A program made the position numbers and the translations under genes. A stretch of DNA of 64,000 nucleotides from Escherichia coli (GTDB taxonomy: Bacteria; Pseudomonadota; Gammaproteobacteria; Enterobacterales; Enterobacteriaceae), in NCBI RefSeq assembly GCF_048403405.1, contig NZ_CP183129.1. One strand, 5' to 3'. The notes below the pieces were generated by a model. It searched no databases, was not told the DNA's origin, and was given only the letters and a program-made list of their open reading frames with translations. This document shows positions 22,858 through 63,695 of the stretch, piece by piece (the stretch's first letter is position 1; every line of letters begins with the position of its first letter).

Positions 22858-22888
22858 CAAGAGCCAGCGCCCGCTGGCTCTTTTTTTA
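22858..22888 (+). terminator. asnS rho-independent terminator
   Basis: GAGCCAGCG-cc-CGCTGGCTC hairpin followed by TTTTTTT. Confidence 0.65.
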
Positions 22889-23237
22889 TCCTTTCTGTCA
22901 AGTTATCTGTTTGTTAAGTCAAGCAATCTATTTGCAACCCCACCATAACGATCATCCTGTTACGGAATATTACACTGCAACATTTGCGCACAAAAAATAA
23001 TCCGCATTCTTATTGCGGATTAGTTTTTTCTTAGCTGATAGCACAATTTTCATACTATTTTTTGGCGTTCTGGATGTCTGAACGAGGATTTAGTGCCAGG
23101 TCGATAAAGTTTCCATCAGAAACAAAATTTCCGTTTAGTTAATTTAAATATAAGGAAATCATATAAATAGATAAATATTGCTGTAAATATCATCACGCTT
23201 CTATGGAAATATGACGGTGTTCACAAAGTTCCTTAAA

Positions 23238-23302
23238 TTTTACTTTTTGTTACATATTTTTTCTTTTTGAAACCAAATCTTTATCTTTGTAGCACTTTCA
23301 CG
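23238..23302 (+). promoter_or_regulatory. ompF upstream OmpR-binding region
   Basis: TTTACTTTTTGTTACATATTTTTTCTTTTTGAAACCAAATCTTTATCTTTGTAGCACTTTCACGG, recognised from memory as the ompF F-box region; within a ~600 bp AT-rich leader. Confidence 0.6.
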
Positions 23303-23448
23303 GTAGCGAAACGTTAGTTTGAATGGAAAGATGCCTGCAGACACATAAAGACACCAAACTCTCATCAATAGTTCCGTAAATTTTTATTGACAGAACTTAT
23401 TGACGGCAGTGGCAGGTGTCATAAAAAAAACCATGAGGGTAATAAATA

Positions 23449-24522
23449 ATGATGAAGCGCAATATTCTGGCAGTGATCGTCCCTGCTCTGTTAGTAGCAG
23501 GTACTGCAAACGCTGCAGAAATCTATAACAAAGATGGCAACAAAGTAGATCTGTACGGTAAAGCTGTCGGTCTGCATTATTTTTCTAAAGACAATGGTGT
23601 AAACAGTTACGGCGGAAACGGCGACAAAACTTATGCCCGTCTTGGTTTTAAAGGGGAAACACAAATCAATTCCGATCTGACCGGCTACGGTCAGTGGGAA
23701 TATAACTTCCAGGGTAACAACTCTGAAGGCGCTGATGCCCAGAAAGGTAACAAAACTCGTCTGGCATTCGCAGGTCTGAAATTCGCTGATGCGGGTTCTA
23801 TCGACTACGGTCGTAACTACGGTGTGGTTTACGACGCACTGGGTTACACCGATATGCTGCCTGAGTTTGGCGGTGACACGGCATACAGCGATGACTTCTT
23901 CGTTGGTCGTGTAGGCGGCGTTGCTACCTATCGTAACTCCAACTTCTTCGGTCTGGTTGACGGCCTGAACTTTGCCGTTCAGTACCTGGGCAAAAACGAA
24001 CGTGCTGGTATTCCTGAGCGTTCCAACGGCGACGGCGTCGGTGGCTCTATCAGCTACGAATTCGAAGGCTTTGGTATCGTAGGTGCTTACGGTGCAGCAG
24101 ACCGTACCGACGCCCAGGAAGCCGAATTCCGCGGTCAGGGTAAAAAAGCTGAACAGTGGGCAACTGGTCTGAAGTATGACGCGAACAACATCTACCTGGC
24201 AGCGAACTACGGTGAAACCCGTAACGCTACGCCAATTGAAGGCGGCTTCGCCAACAAAACGCAAGACGTTCTGTTAGTTGCGCAATACCAGTTCGATTTC
24301 GGTCTGCGTCCGTCCATCGCTTACACCAAATCTAAAGCGAAAGACGTAGAAGGTATCGGTGATGTTGATCTGGTGAACTACTTTGAAGTGGGCGCAACCT
24401 ACTACTTCAACAAAAACATGTCCACCTATGTTGACTACATCATCAACCAGATCGATTCTGACAACAAACTGGGCGTAGGTTCTGACGACACCGTTGCTGT
24501 GGGTATCGTTTACCAGTTCTAA
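23449..24522 (+). CDS. ompF: Outer membrane porin OmpF (variant allele)
   Basis: 357 aa, [22 protein letters not shown] signal, C-terminal ...VGIVYQF; differs from my recollection of the K-12 protein in several predicted loop segments. Confidence 0.93.
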
Positions 24523-53611: not shown

Positions 53612-55372
53612 ATGACGCAAACATTTATCCCCGGCAAAGATGCCGCACTGGAAGATTCCATCGCTCGCTTCCAGCAAAAACTTTCAGACCTCGGCTTTCA
53701 GATTGAAGAGGCCTCCTGGCTGAATCCGGTGCCTAACGTCTGGTCTGTACATATTCGCGACAAAGAGTGCGCACTGTGTTTTACCAACGGTAAAGGCGCA
53801 ACCAAAAAAGCGGCGCTGGCTTCTGCACTCGGTGAATATTTCGAGCGTCTCTCAACCAACTACTTTTTTGCTGATTTCTGGCTGGGCGAAACCATCGCCA
53901 ACGGTCCGTTCGTGCATTATCCCAACGAAAAATGGTTCCCACTGAGCGAAAATGACGATGTGCCAGAAGGGCTGCTCGATGACCGTCTGCGCGCATTTTA
54001 CGATCCGGAGAATGAATTGACCGGCAGTATGCTGATTGACCTGCAATCCGGTAACGAAGATCGTGGTATTTGCGGTCTGCCGTTTACGCGCCAGTCCGAC
54101 AATCAGACCGTTTATATTCCGATGAATATCATTGGTAACCTGTACGTTTCTAACGGTATGTCCGCTGGCAATACCCGCAACGAAGCACGCGTTCAGGGGT
54201 TGTCCGAAGTTTTCGAACGCTACGTGAAAAACCGCATTATTGCTGAAAGCATCAGCTTGCCGGAAATCCCGGCAGACGTGCTGGCGCGTTACCCAGCGGT
54301 GGTTGAAGCCATCGAAACGCTGGAAGCAGAAGGTTTCCCAATCTTTGCTTATGATGGTTCGCTTGGCGGCCAGTATCCGGTGATTTGCGTGGTACTGTTT
54401 AATCCTGCTAACGGCACCTGCTTTGCCTCTTTCGGTGCGCATCCTGATTTTGGCGTAGCACTGGAACGTACCGTGACCGAGCTGCTGCAAGGTCGTGGCC
54501 TGAAAGATTTGGATGTGTTTACTCCGCCAACCTTCGATGATGAAGAAGTTGCTGAACATACCAACCTCGAAACGCACTTTATCGATTCCAGCGGTTTAAT
54601 CTCCTGGGACCTGTTCAAGCAGGATGCCGATTATCCGTTTGTGGACTGGAATTTCTCCGGCACCACGGAGGAAGAGTTTGCTACGCTGATGGCTATCTTC
54701 AACAAAGAAGATAAAGAAGTTTATATTGCCGATTACGAGCATCTGGGCGTTTATGCTTGCCGAATTATCGTGCCTGGCATGTCCGATATTTATCCGGCTG
54801 AAGATCTGTTGCTGGCGAATAACAGTATGGGCAGCCATTTACGTGAAACGATTCTTTCGTTACCAGGCAGCGAGTGGGAAAAAGAAGATTACCTGAACCT
54901 CATCGAGCAACTGGATGAAGAAGGTTTTGATGACTTTACCCGCGTGCGTGAGCTGTTGGGTCTGGCGACCGGGTCGGATAACGGTTGGTACACCCTGCGT
55001 ATCGGTGAATTAAAAGCCATGCTGGCGCTGGCTGGTGGCGATCTGGAACAGGCTCTGGTCTGGACCGAATGGACGATGGAGTTTAACTCATCAGTATTTA
55101 GTCCGGAACGCGCCAACTATTATCGCTGCCTGCAAACGTTGTTATTACTGGCGCAGGAAGAAGATCGCCAGCCGCTGCAATATTTGAATGCGTTTGTTCG
55201 CATGTACGGCGCAGATGCCGTGGAAGCCGCCAGTGCGGCAATGAGCGGCGAAGCGGCGTTTTATGGCTTGCAACCAGTAGATAGCGATCTGCACGCGTTT
55301 GCAGCACATCAGTCGTTGTTGAAGGCCTACGAAAAGCTGCAGCGCGCCAAAGCAGCATTCTGGGCAAAATAA
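53612..55372 (+). CDS. ycaO: YcaO-domain protein (ribosomal protein S12 methylthiolation accessory factor)
   Basis: 586 aa from MTQTFIPGKDAALEDSIARFQQKL; internal Met of track ORF 53579..55372. Confidence 0.92.
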   Translation: MTQTFIPGKDAALEDSIARFQQKLSDLGFQIEEASWLNPVPNVWSVHIRDKECALCFTNGKGATKKAALASALGEYFERLSTNYFFADFWLGETIANGPFVHYPNEKWFPLSENDDVPEGLLDDRLRAFYDPENELTGSMLIDLQSGNEDRGICGLPFTRQSDNQTVYIPMNIIGNLYVSNGMSAGNTRNEARVQGLSEVFERYVKNRIIAESISLPEIPADVLARYPAVVEAIETLEAEGFPIFAYDGSLGGQYPVICVVLFNPANGTCFASFGAHPDFGVALERTVTELLQGRGLKDLDVFTPPTFDDEEVAEHTNLETHFIDSSGLISWDLFKQDADYPFVDWNFSGTTEEEFATLMAIFNKEDKEVYIADYEHLGVYACRIIVPGMSDIYPAEDLLLANNSMGSHLRETILSLPGSEWEKEDYLNLIEQLDEEGFDDFTRVRELLGLATGSDNGWYTLRIGELKAMLALAGGDLEQALVWTEWTMEFNSSVFSPERANYYRCLQTLLLLAQEEDRQPLQYLNAFVRMYGADAVEAASAAMSGEAAFYGLQPVDSDLHAFAAHQSLLKAYEKLQRAKAAFWAK

Positions 55373-55703
55373 AATCAAATAGCCTACGCAATGTAGGCTT
55401 AATGATTCGTCTGAGTTATATTACGGGGCGTTTTTTTAATGCCCCGCTTTACATATATTTGCATTAATAAAATAATTGTAATTATAAAGTTAAATGTCGG
55501 TAATTTGTATTTAATAAATACGATCGATATTGTTACTTCATTCGCCTGGTGCTCCCTTTTAATTAACTGTTTTAGCGGAGGATGCGGAAAAAATTCAACT
55601 CATTTGTTAATTTTTAAAATTTATTTTTATTTGGATAATCAAATATTTACTCCGTATTTGCATAAAAGCCATGCGAATTACGGGCCTATAAGCCAGGCGA
55701 GAT

Positions 55704-55717
55704 ATGATCTATATCAA
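55704..55717. promoter_or_regulatory. Candidate FNR box in the focA-pflB promoter region
   Basis: ATGAT-ctat-ATCAA (9/10 to TTGAT-N4-ATCAA), centred about 30 bp upstream of a TAGTAT -10-like hexamer at 55741-55746 and about 65 bp upstream of the focA GTG. Confidence 0.5.
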
Positions 55718-55777
55718 TTTCTCATCTATAATGCTTTGTTAGTATCTCGTCGCCGACTTAATAAAGAGAGAGTTAGT

Positions 55778-56635
55778 GTGAAAGCTGACAACCCTTTTGA
55801 TCTTTTACTTCCTGCAGCAATGGCCAAAGTGGCCGAAGAGGCAGGTGTCTATAAAGCAACGAAACATCCGCTTAAGACTTTCTATCTGGCGATTACCGCC
55901 GGTGTTTTCATCTCAATCGCATTCGTCTTCTATATCACAGCAACCACTGGCACAGGAACAATGCCCTTCGGCATGGCAAAACTGGTTGGCGGCATTTGCT
56001 TCTCTCTGGGGCTGATTCTTTGTGTTGTCTGCGGAGCCGATCTCTTTACTTCCACAGTGTTGATTGTTGTTGCTAAGGCGAGTGGGCGAATCACCTGGGG
56101 TCAGTTGGCGAAAAACTGGCTAAATGTCTATTTTGGCAACCTGGTCGGCGCACTGCTGTTTGTACTTTTAATGTGGCTTTCCGGCGAGTATATGACCGCG
56201 AATGGTCAATGGGGACTAAACGTCCTACAAACCGCCGACCACAAAGTGCACCATACTTTTATTGAGGCCGTCTGCCTTGGTATCCTGGCAAACCTGATGG
56301 TATGTCTGGCAGTATGGATGAGTTATTCTGGCCGCAGCCTGATGGATAAAGCGTTCATTATGGTGCTGCCGGTCGCGATGTTTGTTGCCAGCGGTTTTGA
56401 GCACAGTATCGCAAACATGTTTATGATCCCGATGGGTATTGTAATCCGCGACTTCGCATCTCCGGAGTTCTGGACCGCTGTCGGTTCTGCACCGGAAAAT
56501 TTTTCTCACCTGACCGTGATGAACTTCATCACTGATAACCTGATTCCGGTTACGATCGGTAATATTATCGGCGGTGGTTTGTTGGTTGGGTTGACATACT
56601 GGGTCATTTACCTGCGTGAAAACGATCACCATTAA
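55778..56635 (+). CDS. focA: Formate channel FocA
   Basis: 285 aa from GTG (V/MKADNPFDLLLPAAMAKVAEEAGVYKATK...); track ORF 55439..56635 is an upstream extension into the AT-rich promoter region. Confidence 0.93.
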   Translation: MKADNPFDLLLPAAMAKVAEEAGVYKATKHPLKTFYLAITAGVFISIAFVFYITATTGTGTMPFGMAKLVGGICFSLGLILCVVCGADLFTSTVLIVVAKASGRITWGQLAKNWLNVYFGNLVGALLFVLLMWLSGEYMTANGQWGLNVLQTADHKVHHTFIEAVCLGILANLMVCLAVWMSYSGRSLMDKAFIMVLPVAMFVASGFEHSIANMFMIPMGIVIRDFASPEFWTAVGSAPENFSHLTVMNFITDNLIPVTIGNIIGGGLLVGLTYWVIYLRENDHH

Positions 56636-56689
56636 TGGTTGTCGAAGTACGCAGTAAATAAAAAATCCACTTAAGAAGGTAGGTGTTAC

Positions 56690-58972
56690 ATGTCCGAGCT
56701 TAATGAAAAGTTAGCCACAGCCTGGGAAGGTTTTACCAAAGGTGACTGGCAGAATGAAGTAAACGTCCGTGACTTCATTCAGAAAAACTACACTCCGTAC
56801 GAGGGTGACGAGTCCTTCCTGGCTGGCGCTACTGAAGCGACCACCACCCTGTGGGACAAAGTAATGGAAGGCGTTAAACTGGAAAACCGCACTCACGCGC
56901 CAGTTGACTTTGACACCGCTGTTGCTTCCACCATCACCTCTCACGACGCTGGCTACATCAACAAAGCGTTGGAAAAAGTTGTTGGTCTGCAGACTGAAGC
57001 TCCGCTGAAACGTGCTCTTATCCCGTTCGGTGGTATCAAAATGATCGAAGGTTCCTGCAAAGCGTACAACCGCGAACTGGACCCGATGATCAAAAAAATC
57101 TTCACTGAATACCGTAAAACTCACAACCAGGGCGTGTTCGACGTTTACACTCCGGACATCCTGCGTTGCCGTAAATCCGGTGTTCTGACCGGTCTGCCAG
57201 ATGCTTATGGCCGTGGTCGTATCATCGGTGACTACCGTCGCGTTGCGCTGTACGGTATCGACTACCTGATGAAAGATAAACTTGCACAGTTCACCTCTCT
57301 GCAGGCTGATCTGGAAAACGGCGTAAACCTGGAACAGACTATCCGTCTGCGCGAAGAAATCGCTGAACAGCACCGCGCTCTGGGTCAGATGAAAGAAATG
57401 GCTGCGAAATACGGCTACGACATCTCTGGTCCGGCTACCAACGCTCAGGAAGCTATCCAGTGGACTTACTTCGGCTACCTGGCTGCTGTTAAGTCTCAGA
57501 ACGGTGCTGCAATGTCCTTCGGTCGTACCTCCACCTTCCTGGATGTGTACATCGAACGTGACCTGAAAGCTGGCAAGATCACCGAACAAGAAGCGCAGGA
57601 AATGGTTGACCACCTGGTCATGAAACTGCGTATGGTTCGCTTCCTGCGTACTCCGGAATACGATGAACTGTTCTCTGGCGACCCGATCTGGGCAACCGAA
57701 TCTATCGGTGGTATGGGCCTCGACGGTCGTACCCTGGTTACCAAAAACAGCTTCCGTTTCCTGAACACCCTGTACACCATGGGTCCGTCTCCGGAACCGA
57801 ACATGACCATTCTGTGGTCCGAAAAACTGCCGCTGAACTTCAAGAAATTCGCTGCTAAAGTGTCCATCGACACCTCTTCTCTGCAGTATGAGAACGATGA
57901 CCTGATGCGTCCGGACTTCAACAACGATGACTACGCTATCGCTTGCTGCGTAAGCCCGATGATCGTTGGTAAACAAATGCAGTTCTTCGGTGCGCGTGCA
58001 AACCTGGCGAAAACCATGCTGTACGCAATCAACGGTGGCGTTGACGAAAAACTGAAAATGCAGGTTGGTCCGAAGTCTGAGCCGATCAAAGGCGATCTCC
58101 TGAACTACGATGAAGTGATGGAGCGCATGGATCACTTCATGGACTGGCTGGCTAAACAGTACATCACTGCACTGAACATCATCCACTACATGCACGACAA
58201 GTACAGCTACGAAGCCTCTCTGATGGCGCTGCACGACCGTGACGTTATCCGCACCATGGCGTGTGGTATCGCTGGTCTGTCCGTTGCTGCTGACTCCCTG
58301 TCTGCAATCAAATATGCGAAAGTTAAACCGATTCGTGACGAAGACGGTCTGGCTATCGACTTCGAAATCGAAGGCGAATACCCGCAGTTTGGTAACAACG
58401 ATCCGCGTGTAGATGACCTGGCTGTTGACCTGGTAGAACGTTTCATGAAGAAAATTCAGAAACTGCACACCTACCGTGACGCTATCCCGACTCAGTCTGT
58501 TCTGACCATCACTTCTAACGTTGTGTATGGTAAGAAAACTGGTAACACCCCAGACGGTCGTCGTGCTGGCGCGCCGTTCGGACCGGGTGCTAACCCGATG
58601 CACGGTCGTGACCAGAAAGGTGCAGTAGCCTCTCTGACTTCCGTTGCTAAACTGCCGTTTGCTTACGCTAAAGATGGTATCTCCTACACCTTCTCTATCG
58701 TTCCGAACGCACTGGGTAAAGACGACGAAGTTCGTAAGACCAACCTGGCTGGTCTGATGGATGGTTACTTCCACCACGAAGCATCCATCGAAGGTGGTCA
58801 GCACCTGAACGTTAACGTGATGAACCGTGAAATGCTGCTCGACGCGATGGAAAACCCGGAAAAATATCCGCAGCTGACCATCCGTGTATCTGGCTACGCA
58901 GTACGTTTCAACTCGCTGACTAAAGAACAGCAGCAGGACGTTATTACTCGTACCTTCACTCAATCTATGTAA
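56690..58972 (+). CDS. pflB: Pyruvate formate-lyase (formate C-acetyltransferase 1)
   Basis: 760 aa; active-site ACCVSPM and C-terminal glycyl-radical motif RVSGYAVRF. Confidence 0.97.
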
Positions 58973-59290: not shown

Positions 59291-59509
59291 TTACATCCAC
59301 ATAATTTGCTGTCCTGATGGCAACGGGTGCGGCCTTACGGCGTGGACTTCTCCCGGCTTCACGATGTATCGCTGTACCGACTCATAAGTGATGAACGTGG
59401 CGCTGCAATTCACGTTCTGGCACTGATGATAACGCTCTTTTGTCGTGTCAGTGATATAGCGACTTGTACGCGCATGTGCGGCATGCTGGCATAAAGGACA
59501 ATGAAACAT
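59291..59509 (-). CDS. ogr: P2 Ogr-type zinc-finger late-gene transcription activator
   Basis: 72 aa MFHCPLCQHAAHARTSRYITDTTKERYHQCQNVNCSATF... with a C-X2-C...C-X4-C zinc finger; internal Met of track ORF 59291..59572. Confidence 0.9.
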   Translation of the reverse strand: MFHCPLCQHAAHARTSRYITDTTKERYHQCQNVNCSATFITYESVQRYIVKPGEVHAVRPHPLPSGQQIMWM

Positions 59510-59590
59510 CGCGAGCACCTCTTCCGGTTTTGTTGATGGTGCCATTTTAGTTAATTTATCCTTACAAAACAAACAGATAAAACAAAAACA

Positions 59591-60754
59591 TCACTCATCA
59601 TCTTCTGTTTCGTACTCCACATCAGAAAGCCTGACCTCAAGCTCTAAGGACGTCGTGAAGCCGCTATTATTCAGAAAATGTGTCACCTTAGTGATTGTCC
59701 AGTCCTGCTCGTCTATGACGCGCTTAAAGCCAGACACTTTGACCGGTGTTTCCGTGTAAATATCTGCCCGACCGGTAGCCAGGCTGATGGAGAACTCCGC
59801 AACGCCCCGTTGCAGTTTATCCCACTTCGCCTGAGCGGCGCGCATGGCCTGCGCTTTCGTGGCATATACCGTGGTCAGGGCAAAAACGTTGTCAGCCTCA
59901 CCGGCCATGTATTCACCTTCACGCGCTTCCGGTACTTTAGGCGCTTTCTTCTGCCTGACCGGTTTCGCTTTCGGGTGCTCCAGTGCGCGCAGGTGTTTCT
60001 CTTTCTTTTTGCGTTTCAGTTTTACCTTCTGCTTTTGAGGCTTCGGGTCTTTGGTGTGTAGCCATTTTGCCGTTACACCGGTGTAGGCTCCACGGTCAGC
60101 AATCGCAAAATGATGGCGGTCGCCGTCGCTGCGGGTTATGGTGACCTGCGGGATTTTTTTACCGCTGGCCGTCACTCCCTGCCCCGCTTTGAGAAACAAC
60201 AGTTTTCCCATTTTTACCGACACCTCCCCGCCGTTGCGTTCAGCAAGGCGGGTCAGGAATTTTGCATCAGACTCCTGCGACTGGTCGATGTGCGGGATTT
60301 TAATTCCGGCCAGTGACGGCGCGACACTGGCTTCCAGCCTGTTACGGGAGGCTATCACCTCAACAATCGCACCGAGCGTGGTGTCATGCCAGGAGCCTTC
60401 ACTGCGGGAATTGAGCGTCCCGCGAAAATCTGCACTCCGGGCGCGGATGGTAACCACATCCGGCGCGCCCCGGTGTTCAACCTCATCAACGGTAAATTTC
60501 CCTTTGCATACCAGGGCAAAACCTTTCCAGCCGATATACACCGTCAGGACAGCGCCACGAACCGGCAGCCCGACCTGCCCGTCGGCATCGTTCAGTTCAA
60601 TATCAAGCTGGTCAGCCTCAAAGCCCCGGTTATCCGTCAGGGTCATGCTCATCAGACGGTCGCTGATATTGCCGGTAATATCCCTGCTGTCGAGCATCAG
60701 CATGTAATCCGGCGTCAGCGTACTGCCTGCATCAAATGTCAGCGCATCCAGCAT
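59591..60754 (-). CDS. D: P2 gpD-type tail protein
   Basis: 387 aa; position between U and ogr and length as in P2; lysine-rich central segment. Confidence 0.85.
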   Translation of the reverse strand: MLDALTFDAGSTLTPDYMLMLDSRDITGNISDRLMSMTLTDNRGFEADQLDIELNDADGQVGLPVRGAVLTVYIGWKGFALVCKGKFTVDEVEHRGAPDVVTIRARSADFRGTLNSRSEGSWHDTTLGAIVEVIASRNRLEASVAPSLAGIKIPHIDQSQESDAKFLTRLAERNGGEVSVKMGKLLFLKAGQGVTASGKKIPQVTITRSDGDRHHFAIADRGAYTGVTAKWLHTKDPKPQKQKVKLKRKKKEKHLRALEHPKAKPVRQKKAPKVPEAREGEYMAGEADNVFALTTVYATKAQAMRAAQAKWDKLQRGVAEFSISLATGRADIYTETPVKVSGFKRVIDEQDWTITKVTHFLNNSGFTTSLELEVRLSDVEYETEDDE

Positions 60755-61233
60755 TATCCCGCCCCCGTCATACCCGTGAATCTGGTCGCCATACTGCCAG
60801 CCTTACCGATGAGCGATTCCGCCTGTTTACCGATATCGCCATAAAGCGCGGCCAGTGATTCATCAACGCGGGTGAGCGACAGCGTAAAATCAATTTTCCG
60901 GGGTGTGCCGTCTGCAAAGAAAATACTCCCTGTTTCACTCACCCTGCTGATGACATACATGCCGTAAATCATGCCGGTGCCATCCAGCAACGGCCACGCC
61001 CGACCTTCCTCTGCCATCAGCCTGAGCGTGGTCATCGTCAGCTTTCCGCCTGTCAGTTCGGGATAAAGCACACCGGCAAGCGTAATGTTTTCCTCACCCA
61101 CACCGAGAAACTGAAAGGCATCCCGTTTACCGATACGGGAATTTGACGGCCAGCGATAATCTGATTCACGCTGCATGGTCTGGTGTGGCAGCGTCTGGCG
61201 CATAAAAACAAACATACCTAACGCGAGCATCAT
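60754..61233 (-). CDS. U: P2 gpU-type tail protein
   Basis: 159 aa; 1-nt overlap with D; between T and D as in P2. Confidence 0.85.
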   Translation of the reverse strand: MMLALGMFVFMRQTLPHQTMQRESDYRWPSNSRIGKRDAFQFLGVGEENITLAGVLYPELTGGKLTMTTLRLMAEEGRAWPLLDGTGMIYGMYVISRVSETGSIFFADGTPRKIDFTLSLTRVDESLAALYGDIGKQAESLIGKAGSMATRFTGMTGAG

Positions 61234-61247
61234 TTTTCGTCACCTCC

Positions 61248-63695
61248 TTAACCGTCATGCATCATGCTGGCACGGGCGCGCGCACGTTTATCCCGCTCGT
61301 ATTTTTCGAGCGCATCCTGTAACTGGCGGTCGAGCTGAGTCCCCGGTGCAGTACCGCCCGTCAGACTGATGTGATATTCGTTTTTACTCTGGTCCACATA
61401 AGAGCGGCCAGCCGGTGCCGTAACCGGCTGATAAGCCTGATAGCCTGCATAAGAGCTGGTCGCCGGAATATAACCACCGCTGCCATACGTGGCGGCTTGA
61501 GTTCTGGCGGCGGTCTGGTCAAGTGCGTCAGACTCTTTGTTGATGACCCCGAGCTTTTCCAGTACCCAGTCAATACCGCTGCGCAGTTTGTTGAACGCAT
61601 TAAGCGGCAGCATCAGCGCGTCAGCCAGTGCCTGCCCGAACATGACGCCCGTGTCACGGCAACGATTCAGGGTGTCCTGGGTGGCTTTAACCGGGGCAAT
61701 CAGGTTTTTAAACCACTGCCACGCGGCCTGTAACTTTTCGCCCAGCCAGTCAAACACCGGTTTCAGTGGCGTGAACAGCTCCCCCACCGGCGCAAATGCC
61801 GCTTTCAGCCCTTCAACCACACCGCCAAAGAATGCGCTGACAGGCTCCCAGTATTTACGGATAAGCAACGCCCCGGCGACAATGGCAGCCACCACGGCCA
61901 CAACCGGCCAGCTAATCGCCCCGATGGCCGTCATAATGGCACTACCAACCGTCGTGAAGATTGCACCCATTGCGCCTGCTGCCGCGATGATGGCATTGAT
62001 GCCGGTGATAACCGGCCAGGCTACGAGGCCAATGGCACCGATGACACCAGTCAGCGCCAGTGCACCACCGACAATGATGCCGATGGTTGACGCCAGTGAT
62101 TTGTTTTTCTGTATCCAGCCGTCGAGTTTTAACACATACTTTGTGGCCGTCTGCGTGAGCTTACGCAGCGCGCCTTCCTGCTGGTCAAACAGGTCAGTCC
62201 CCACCGCCTCATAAGCGGACTGAAACTCCTTAAAGTCACCGCCGAGGTTGTCCTGCATGATATTTACCAGCTCCGCGGTCTTCCCGTCTGAGGCTTTAAA
62301 CGCAGCGGTCAGTTTGTCCAGCTTTCCGGTTGAGGCGGCAGTCATCAGCACGGCGGCGGCTGAGCTGGCCTCCTCCCCGAAAATGGTTTTCATGTATTCA
62401 GCCTGCTGGGCAGTACCGAGCCGGTTTTTCTCAAAACTGGCCTGCATTTCTTTCAGAATTGTAAATACTGGTCGGGTGTTTCCCTTGCTATCTGAGGTTT
62501 TCACTCCAAGCTCTTTGAGTGCATCCCATGCTTTTCCCGTCGGTGCCTGCAGGCGACTTAACACGGCACGGCTTCCCGTCCCCGCCATTGAACCGGTAAT
62601 TTTTGCATCATGCAGCGCCCCGACCATTGCGGCGGTTTCTTCAATGCTGACACCGGCATTTTTTGCCACAGGTGCGGCATAGGTCAGCGCATCGCTCATA
62701 CCGTCAAAATCGGCGGCGGTTTTGTTCATCGTCATGGAGAGAACATCCCCGATATGAGCGACCTTATCGTTTGAAAGCTGAAAGGCGGATTTCATCCCCA
62801 TCAGCAGGGCGGCGTTTTCTTCCATCGTGCGACGGTTCGCCAGCGCCATATTCAGCGTGACCGGCGTTGCCGCCTGAATGGCATCAACATCCCCACCGGC
62901 TTTCGCAATAATAATCTGAGCACCGGCTGCATCATCTGCCGAGGCTGCGGTATTGTCGCCGAGCTGGCGCGCCTGCTTGCGGAGCGCGGCCATTTCGGCG
63001 GAGTCTTTTGCCACACCGAGCACGGCCTGCAATTCTGAGTTTTTCTGCGCAAACTCATAACCGGGCATCAGCAACTTAACTCCGGCCATCGTTCCCGCAG
63101 CAGCAATCCCCACACCGGCAGCGCCCACTGAGGCCATATTTCCGGCCAGTTCCTTTCCGGCCTGATAACGCTGTTTGACTGCGTTAAGTTTTGCCTGTTG
63201 CGCACTGACACGCGCCAGCGCGTCACGCTGCCGGTTAAGCTGGGCGGTGGTTTCACTGATACGGTTTTTCAGTCCCTGCTCATCATGTGCAAGATTGCGG
63301 GTATTAATTCCCACAACGGCCAGTTCCCGCTGCTGGCGTTTAACGGAATCCGTCAGGCGGTAATATTTCGCCTGTAAGTCCTCCGCCGCACGCTTCGCGG
63401 ATTCCAGCACTTTCGCCTTAGCACGTGTCGGACGTTCGGTGTTTTTAAACTGTGTTGCAAGGGCTTCGGCCTCCTGCCGTGCCTTTTCAAGTGCATGACC
63501 AGTCACGGCGAGCTGTGCACTGGTCTTGCGAAATCCCTCAATACGGGATGCGTGACCGTTCAGCTCGCGCAGTGATTTTTGTGTTTCCCGGATATCCCCC
63601 GACAGCGATTTGCTCGCTGTGCGGATGGATTTAAACGGGCGGGATGCCTGGTCAACAGCCCTGAGCAATACCTGTAATTTTACATTGTTACTCAT
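61248..63695 (-). CDS. T: P2 gpT-type tail tape measure protein
   Basis: 815 aa; N-terminal coiled-coil-rich region, central Ala/Gly-rich hydrophobic segments; start ATG overlaps the E' stop (ATGAGTAA). Confidence 0.88.
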   Translation of the reverse strand: MSNNVKLQVLLRAVDQASRPFKSIRTASKSLSGDIRETQKSLRELNGHASRIEGFRKTSAQLAVTGHALEKARQEAEALATQFKNTERPTRAKAKVLESAKRAAEDLQAKYYRLTDSVKRQQRELAVVGINTRNLAHDEQGLKNRISETTAQLNRQRDALARVSAQQAKLNAVKQRYQAGKELAGNMASVGAAGVGIAAAGTMAGVKLLMPGYEFAQKNSELQAVLGVAKDSAEMAALRKQARQLGDNTAASADDAAGAQIIIAKAGGDVDAIQAATPVTLNMALANRRTMEENAALLMGMKSAFQLSNDKVAHIGDVLSMTMNKTAADFDGMSDALTYAAPVAKNAGVSIEETAAMVGALHDAKITGSMAGTGSRAVLSRLQAPTGKAWDALKELGVKTSDSKGNTRPVFTILKEMQASFEKNRLGTAQQAEYMKTIFGEEASSAAAVLMTAASTGKLDKLTAAFKASDGKTAELVNIMQDNLGGDFKEFQSAYEAVGTDLFDQQEGALRKLTQTATKYVLKLDGWIQKNKSLASTIGIIVGGALALTGVIGAIGLVAWPVITGINAIIAAAGAMGAIFTTVGSAIMTAIGAISWPVVAVVAAIVAGALLIRKYWEPVSAFFGGVVEGLKAAFAPVGELFTPLKPVFDWLGEKLQAAWQWFKNLIAPVKATQDTLNRCRDTGVMFGQALADALMLPLNAFNKLRSGIDWVLEKLGVINKESDALDQTAARTQAATYGSGGYIPATSSYAGYQAYQPVTAPAGRSYVDQSKNEYHISLTGGTAPGTQLDRQLQDALEKYERDKRARARASMMHDG

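Follow-up and report, generated by a model that had tools for sequence, protein, structure and literature searches.

The control region of the Escherichia coli focA–pflB operon is already known, being a classic oxygen-regulated promoter with a textbook FNR site, and it can be compared with two sets of described regulatory sites. Class II FNR promoters such as those of dmsA and narG (Myers 2013, Table 1) carry a TTGAT-N4-ATCAA-type inverted repeat 40.5–41.5 bp before the transcription start and a weak −10 element without a recognizable −35 hexamer, and the locus described here shares all of these features; it differs from them in its left half-site, which reads ATGAT in 79 of 79 loci, and in an extra consensus −10 element, TATAAT, that precedes the FNR-dependent one by 13 bp. 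With the multirepeat operators of ArcA-P (Park 2013) the locus shares four TGTTA-type direct repeats, spaced ~11 bp apart under a ChIP peak; unlike those operators, the focA ArcA site is reported to be an activator site, located at or over the distal promoter. The mechanism of this activation is stated to be unknown (Park 2013; PMC3798270), and focA was omitted from the position analysis of the same study because it has multiple start sites.

The pfl region of E. coli K-12 agrees in locus, gene order and length with the DNA analyzed here, a 64,000-nucleotide stretch of E. coli (contig NZ_CP183129.1 of RefSeq assembly GCF_048403405.1; herein referred to as the window and numbered from its first letter). 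K-12 and the window show no difference in the FNR site, both proximal −10 hexamers, the 5′ untranslated region, the GTG start, an IHF-like core or the hexamers of the distal promoter. Positions 55440–55777, between the probable terminator of ycaO and the focA GTG, are almost certainly the promoter-regulatory region of the focA–pflB operon, and no observation speaks against this identification.

The focA–pflB locus and its correspondence with K-12

In the window, ycaO, focA and pflB are consecutive genes on the plus strand, in the same order as in E. coli K-12 (table 1), and the spacer that precedes focA is unusually poor in G+C: positions 55440–55777 contain 30.8% G+C against 51.1% for the window as a whole, values below 31% occur in just 0.44% of the window's 338-bp segments, and the ycaO–focA spacer is one of three such AT-rich places in the 64 kb. 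The two further strongly AT-rich islands are located at ~12431–12970 and ~22881–23480. Positions 55373–55790 are matched by megablast in 5423 of 5426 complete E. coli genomes, and among the matches listed the sole annotation beneath the match is focA beginning at the GTG, the start that RefSeq gives alike in K-12 and in the nearest genome. When the spacer is aligned with the ycaO–focA spacer of K-12 MG1655 (NC_000913.3, ~954467–954871), 7 of 405 bases differ, there are no insertions or deletions, and the two sequences show zero differences across 55678–55777.

An earlier description of this DNA, made without database searches (herein the sequence-only reading), had remarked on the AT-rich stretch before the focA GTG, which the base composition bears out, and had recognized in it the anaerobically induced, multi-promoter pfl control region, naming alignment with the characterized K-12 region as a check; the identity with K-12 and the published FNR ChIP-seq site both uphold this view. 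Its use of "leader" for the whole ~340 bp holds for the ~26–37 nt that precede the GTG on proximal transcripts and not for most of the stretch, which consists of regulatory sequence farther upstream. Transcripts begun at the distal promoter would have ~295 nt ahead of the GTG. That reading made no mention of the distal promoter or of the ArcA, NarL and IHF-like elements that take up the remainder of the stretch.

All of the binding and start-site data considered below come from K-12 and were mapped onto the sequence of this strain. Coordinates in U00096.2 (x) were converted to window positions as 55778 + (953689 − x), a formula that is validated by two published site sequences falling exactly at their predicted positions; because the spacer is nearly identical to that of K-12, published K-12 data can be transferred to it by coordinate. 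Conservation was assessed in focA loci from the genomes of 80 species belonging to ~40 enterobacterial genera, which yielded 79 usable loci; the phylogenetic footprint was computed on 76 genomes and the alignment on 23 genera. Both resolve the spacer into discrete conserved blocks with free-running sequence between them, and several of these blocks coincide with published elements.

Table 1. Features of the ycaO–focA–pflB region, in window coordinates.
Feature	Position	Strand	Basis or remark
ycaO end	55372	+	
First hairpin after the ycaO stop, AGCCTACGCAATGTAGGCT	55381–55399	+	−11.7 kcal/mol, z = −4.0; terminator scan lists the minus strand
Hairpin of the putative ycaO intrinsic terminator, CGGGGCGTT-TTTTT-AATGCCCCG	55424–55446	+	−15.7 kcal/mol, z = −3.7
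Spurious 113-codon N-terminal extension of the focA frame	55439–55777	+	Multiple tests
Distal sigma-70 promoter, TTTACA-17-AATAAT	55448–55476	+	Promoter scan, 10/12 positions
ArcA-P site, four direct repeats ~11 bp apart (TGTAAT, AGTTAA, GGTAAT, others)	55465–55518	+	Park 2013
Conserved block TGTTAC...TGCTCC.TTTTAATTAAC	55531–55567	+	At least 85–95% conserved, 76 genomes
Conserved AAAAATTCAAC, then A+T tract TAA.TTTTAAAATTTATTTTTA	55588–55631	+	Phylogenetic footprint; NarL heptamer CAACTCA at 55596
Match to IHF core consensus, AATCAAATATTTA (WATCAANNNNTTR)	55637–55649	+	Exact, sequence alone
Conserved block CGGGCCTATAAGCCAGGCGAGAT	55682–55703	+	Directly upstream of FNR site; 76 genomes
FNR binding site, ATGATCTATATCAA	55704–55717 (center 55710.5)	.	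Sequence confirmed; Myers 2013 ChIP-seq
TATAAT, −10 of overlapping FNR-independent promoter	55727–55732	+	Invariant in 23 genera
TAGTAT, −10 of FNR-activated promoter, start ~55751–55752	55740–55745	+	Geometry; Myers 2013, −40.5; invariant in 23 genera
Purine-rich ribosome-binding region, AAGAGAGAG	55764–55772	+	Conserved
focA CDS, GTG start, 285 aa, formate channel	55778–56635	+	RefSeq annotation in nearest genome and K-12
pflB	56690–58972	+	
SNP vs K-12, in-frame TGA of K-12 to TGG, creating the long ORF	55549		
SNPs vs K-12, inside ArcA four-repeat site	55488, 55496		
SNPs vs K-12, at poorly conserved positions	55408, 55539, 55668, 55677		

The upstream boundary is set by the probable intrinsic terminator of ycaO, a strong hairpin whose GGGGC...GCCCC stem is conserved in 23 genera with a T-run after it in most of them; the terminator scan missed it because the T-run of E. 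coli is only CTTTACAT, which is weak. Beyond the operon the window departs from K-12: where K-12 has pflA 191 bp downstream of pflB, the window has a P2-like prophage, so that the two pfl genes are not adjacent in this lineage. The prophage genes start ~320 bp past pflB and occupy window positions 59291–64000, with ogr (59291–59572) and gpD (59591–60754) both on the minus strand. In TUM14771, which is the nearest complete genome, a P2-like prophage of at least ~30 kb sits at the same place.

The FNR site and the proximal promoters

The sequence-only reading had placed ATGATCTATATCAA at 55704–55717, as a candidate pair of FNR half-sites followed by −10-like hexamers. The motif is present at exactly that position, where it agrees with TTGAT-N4-ATCAA in 9 of the 10 specified bases, the hexamers TATAAT and TAGTAT do follow it, and K-12 ChIP-seq data raise it from a mere candidate to an established site. 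In Myers 2013 (PMC3688515, Table S6), U00096.2 953750 is given as a predicted FNR site with the sequence TTGATATAGATCAT and a PWM score of 14.37, and this sequence is the exact reverse complement of ATGATCTATATCAA at the matching coordinate. The same study reports FNR ChIP peaks at 953741/953746, describes focA–pflB as "directly activated" with two sites and a position of −40.5 (Table 1), and classes it as "Activated" in the comparison of wild type with Δfnr (Table S8); focA is also among the FNR ChIP-chip targets of Grainger 2007. These K-12 data, mapped here, show that FNR occupies ATGATCTATATCAA in vivo, ~41 bp 5′ of the proximal start, and that expression of focA–pflB is FNR dependent.

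The center of the FNR-type 14-mer lies 67.5–69.5 bases 5′ of the GTG in 79 of 79 loci. Its positions 1–6 and 11–14 are invariant and position 10 is an A in 76 of the 79; variation otherwise falls at spacer positions 7–9, of which position 8 is an A in 78 loci. Constrained half-sites around a variable spacer are the pattern expected of an inverted repeat bound by a protein. Further one-mismatch 14-mers of the FNR type occur in the window at 11336, 20277, 28593 and 32258. A search of the region for a second FNR site returned only candidates with three mismatches (55454, 55505, 55604 and 55626), none of them convincing. We also considered GATAATCAA (55634–42) as an FNR half-site serving the distal promoter and rejected it; it is an exact match to the IHF core and has no left half-site.

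The spacing of the FNR site agrees with class II geometry, in that 41.5 bases added to its center at 55710.5 lead to 55752, six bases past TAGTAT. An 8-bp spacer after TATAAT puts the start of the overlapping promoter at ~A55741. We take the TATAAT promoter to be P6A and the TAGTAT promoter to be P6. No −35 hexamer was found by the promoter scan for either of these proximal −10 elements. The TATAAT promoter has been used in vitro as the focA promoter in a study that describes an 8-bp gap between −10 element and start and a sigma-70-dependent pause, and that made a 2-bp deletion mutant in GCTTTGTT (Sun 2021). TAGTAT may act as a −10-like sigma-70 pause element for transcripts begun at 55741.

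Directly upstream of the FNR site, the conserved CGGGCCTATAAGCCAGGCGAGAT block falls inside a ~105-bp reporter fragment that runs from 55672 to the ribosome-binding site and that has been reported, in a lacZ comparison with lac, to have activity ~5-fold lower in air and 2.5-fold higher without oxygen. The block includes a −10-like TATAAG. At the other end of the proximal region, AGAGAGAGTTAGT ahead of the GTG is invariant in the 79 loci, in all of which the start codon is GTG.

The distal promoter and the elements between

In the sigma-70 scan TTTACA-17-AATAAT is the sole promoter match, with an expected start at ~55483. The same hexamer pair has been described as the promoter of focA–pflB for RpoD holoenzyme (Shimada 2014), and a sigma-70 ChIP-seq peak at 954032/954040 (Myers 2013; PMC3688515) converts to window positions 55427–55435. 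On our reading of the columns of Table S2 in Myers 2013, this distal peak and a proximal one (~55770) are both several-fold higher without oxygen. The K-12 data thus show sigma-70 RNA polymerase at two places, a proximal one at ~55770 and a distal one at ~55430 beside the promoter at 55448–76, and both are more occupied when oxygen is absent. The distal promoter of the window is probably P7, the upstream promoter of pfl.

The ArcA site of Park 2013 (PMC3798270, Tables S3/S4; 953949–954002, ChIP peak focA2) is identical in sequence to window positions 55465–55518 except at 55488 and 55496, and its repeat cores TGTAA, GTTAA and GGTA are kept in 76 genomes; as mapped from K-12, the data show that ArcA-P occupies this four-repeat site. 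The two differing positions are of opposite kinds: at 55488 the window has A, as does the majority in the 23-genus alignment, and at 55496 the majority base is the A of K-12. Farther downstream, the conserved block at 55531–55567 may hold further ArcA-type sites, to judge from its resemblance to the TGTTA/GTTAATTAA repeat.

Nine NarL heptamers are listed for focA from RegulonDB (MotifAdjuster; PMC2718512). Eight map to the window at 55462, 55478, 55513, 55522, 55596, 55647, 55711 and 55728, and the SNP at 55496 destroys the remaining one, TATCGGT, in this strain. With SNPs in the ArcA site and a NarL heptamer lost, quantitative regulation could therefore differ from that in K-12.

The putative IHF site is one of four exact core matches in the window against 2.5 expected, which is nonsignificant alone; its core bases are conserved in the 76 genomes and a conserved A+T tract adjoins it. 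A published paper names IHF in connection with pfl in its title, and in Table S4 of Myers 2013 we found no IHF ChIP-chip coordinate within 953600–954099. A scan of 55300–56800 against Rfam gave no match at E ≤ 1, a repeat search returned nothing beyond the terminator hairpins and some short palindromes of A+T, and small ORFs of at least 20 aa are few on either strand.

These elements suggest how the region may work. Without oxygen, dimeric [4Fe-4S] FNR bound at −41.5 would replace the −35 element and recruit RNA polymerase to TAGTAT, a weak −10, in class II style. The same bound FNR would lie over the −35 position of the TATAAT promoter (~−30.5 from its start) and shut that promoter; from the 13-bp offset between the two −10 elements, one bound FNR is expected to activate one start and to block the other. 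An IHF-type bend at ~55637–49 and ArcA-P bound to the distal repeats may jointly raise transcription from the distal promoter and couple it to the proximal region, and the NarL heptamers spread across both promoters would bring about nitrate repression. FocA would then be translated from the GUG at 55778 behind the conserved purine-rich ribosome-binding site.

Alternative explanations and the start of focA

One alternative holds that ATGATCTATATCAA arose by chance from the AT-rich composition, or serves another regulator of the CRP/FNR family, and has no role in oxygen control. The motif gives this idea some footing, in that the window contains five one-mismatch FNR-type matches against 2.7 expected, a count reached in 14 of 100 shuffles, and in that the left half-site is ATGAT instead of TTGAT. 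Since the motif match is nonsignificant when taken alone, the case for a real site is made by its constant position, by conservation across 79 loci and by ChIP data from the literature: an FNR ChIP-seq peak covers the identical K-12 sequence and expression is FNR dependent, position and half-sites are kept across loci while the spacer varies, and an invariant −10 stands behind the site with the expected start 41.5 bp away, all of which make a chance match or a foreign regulator extremely unlikely. Nor do we favor the proposal that the spacer is mainly a nonspecific, H-NS-coated "promoter island" with many unproductive polymerase-binding sites and no organized control region. An entry 953696_434 focA/ycaO does appear among published promoter islands (Panyukov and Ozoline 2013), and anaerobic H-NS ChIP-chip regions (Myers 2013, Table S3) convert to 54810–55492 and 55614–56296; however, the discrete conserved blocks match ArcA, FNR and −10 elements with unconserved DNA between them, and sigma-70 forms two defined, oxygen-responsive peaks, so that an island in place of a control region is very unlikely. 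The island description can be compatible with an organized focA–pflB control region and fails just as a replacement for it. The K-12 H-NS regions flank the spacer on both sides and extend into ycaO and focA.

The remaining alternative concerns coding, in that the ORF list gives a 398-aa frame that opens with an ATG at 55439, passes through the focA GTG in phase and ends at 56635, and strains with the TGG allele might make a 398-aa FocA from this ATG or from an internal in-frame TTG. The frame has no stops in its 113 upstream codons at 31% G+C (p ~1.5e-4 from base composition) where the other two frames hold 10 and 13, ~14% of complete E. coli records (742/5421) are identical over the 60 bases around the TGG, and an automatic gene caller has produced the 398-aa form on two contigs (P0002). 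Against this, the ATG at 55439 sits within the 3′ arm of the putative ycaO terminator hairpin and upstream of all mapped or predicted focA promoters, and no ribosome-binding site or Shine-Dalgarno sequence was found before it. K-12 has an in-frame TGA 76 codons before the GTG where the window has TGG (55547–49), which is the only reason that the frame is open in this lineage, and another E. coli has a TAG 48 codons before the GTG. Compared with K-12, all six differences in the extension are nonsynonymous (one being the stop change) and all 17 in focA are synonymous; likewise, all five amino acid differences from the 398-aa call of P0002 sit in the extension. The corresponding frame holds a mean of 6.1 in-frame stops in 76 other genomes, without frame-specific depletion in the unconserved distal part, and GC3 is 0.29 in the extension against 0.55 in focA. 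Solved FocA chains have 285 residues, PDB 3KCU aligning over 1–285 from ORF residue 114. We give the long form practically no credence.

Across the 79 loci the open run upstream of the GTG varies from 4 to 86 codons. Hidden coding as the cause of the missing stops was considered and rejected, given the ~6 stops in other genera and the absence of a distal frame bias. Pfam finds no match in the 113-aa extension and places PF01226 (FNT family) in focA at 2e-78; no exact copy of the 398-aa protein occurs in a collection of 15 billion sequences, and the 285-aa protein is exactly FOCA_ECOLI. The true translation start is the GTG at 55778 and the ATG at 55439 is no start codon; the 113-codon extension is an artefact of ORF listing, and its freedom from stops is a lineage-specific accident. 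The sequence-only reading had already called the listed start almost certainly wrong, and the K-12 TGA, the nonsynonymous changes, the stops of relatives and the FocA structures bear this out. The ORF list also starts ycaO at a TTG (53579), 11 codons before the RefSeq ATG at 53612, another overextension of the longest-ORF kind.

The start of focA may be under constraint of a further kind. Positions 55719–55803, which take in the proximal promoters, the 26–37-nt leader and the first focA codons including their synonymous positions, are near-totally invariant in more than 20 genera, and this invariance exceeds the needs of two −10 hexamers and a ribosome-binding site. Third-codon-position entropy in the 76 genomes is 0.52 for focA codons 1–15 (55778–55822) and 0.45 for codons 271–285 (56588–56632), against 0.7–1.4 elsewhere, which suggests constraint at the RNA or DNA level at both ends of the gene; at the 5′ end it could stem, for example, from translation start or pairing with a small RNA, and at the 3′ end from signals for the expression of pflB. 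The focA start is embedded in GTGTGA (55776–55781), where an out-of-frame GUG–UGA start–stop overlaps the true GUG, and this arrangement is invariant in the 79 loci. A paper on initiation at GUGUG reportedly mentions focA. In a separate study, focA mRNA was recovered in a pull-down with RprA (PMC5861431). A posttranscriptional throttle on FocA, acting on top of the known promoter by competition between start codons, by pairing with the small RNA RprA or by pausing of sigma-70, is an idea that we put forward tentatively and consider rather improbable, and parts of it may already be published.

For annotation, the value of the comparison is that one TGA-to-TGG change in this lineage makes a longest-ORF track start focA 113 codons too early; with focA and ycaO (11 codons) both overextended, starts taken from such a track are untrustworthy across AT-rich spacers. 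For the organism, the ArcA-site and NarL-site SNPs of this lineage might shift the tuning of the operon a little, and because gut colonization selects regulatory mutations upstream of focA (PMC5094792), such tuning is possibly relevant.
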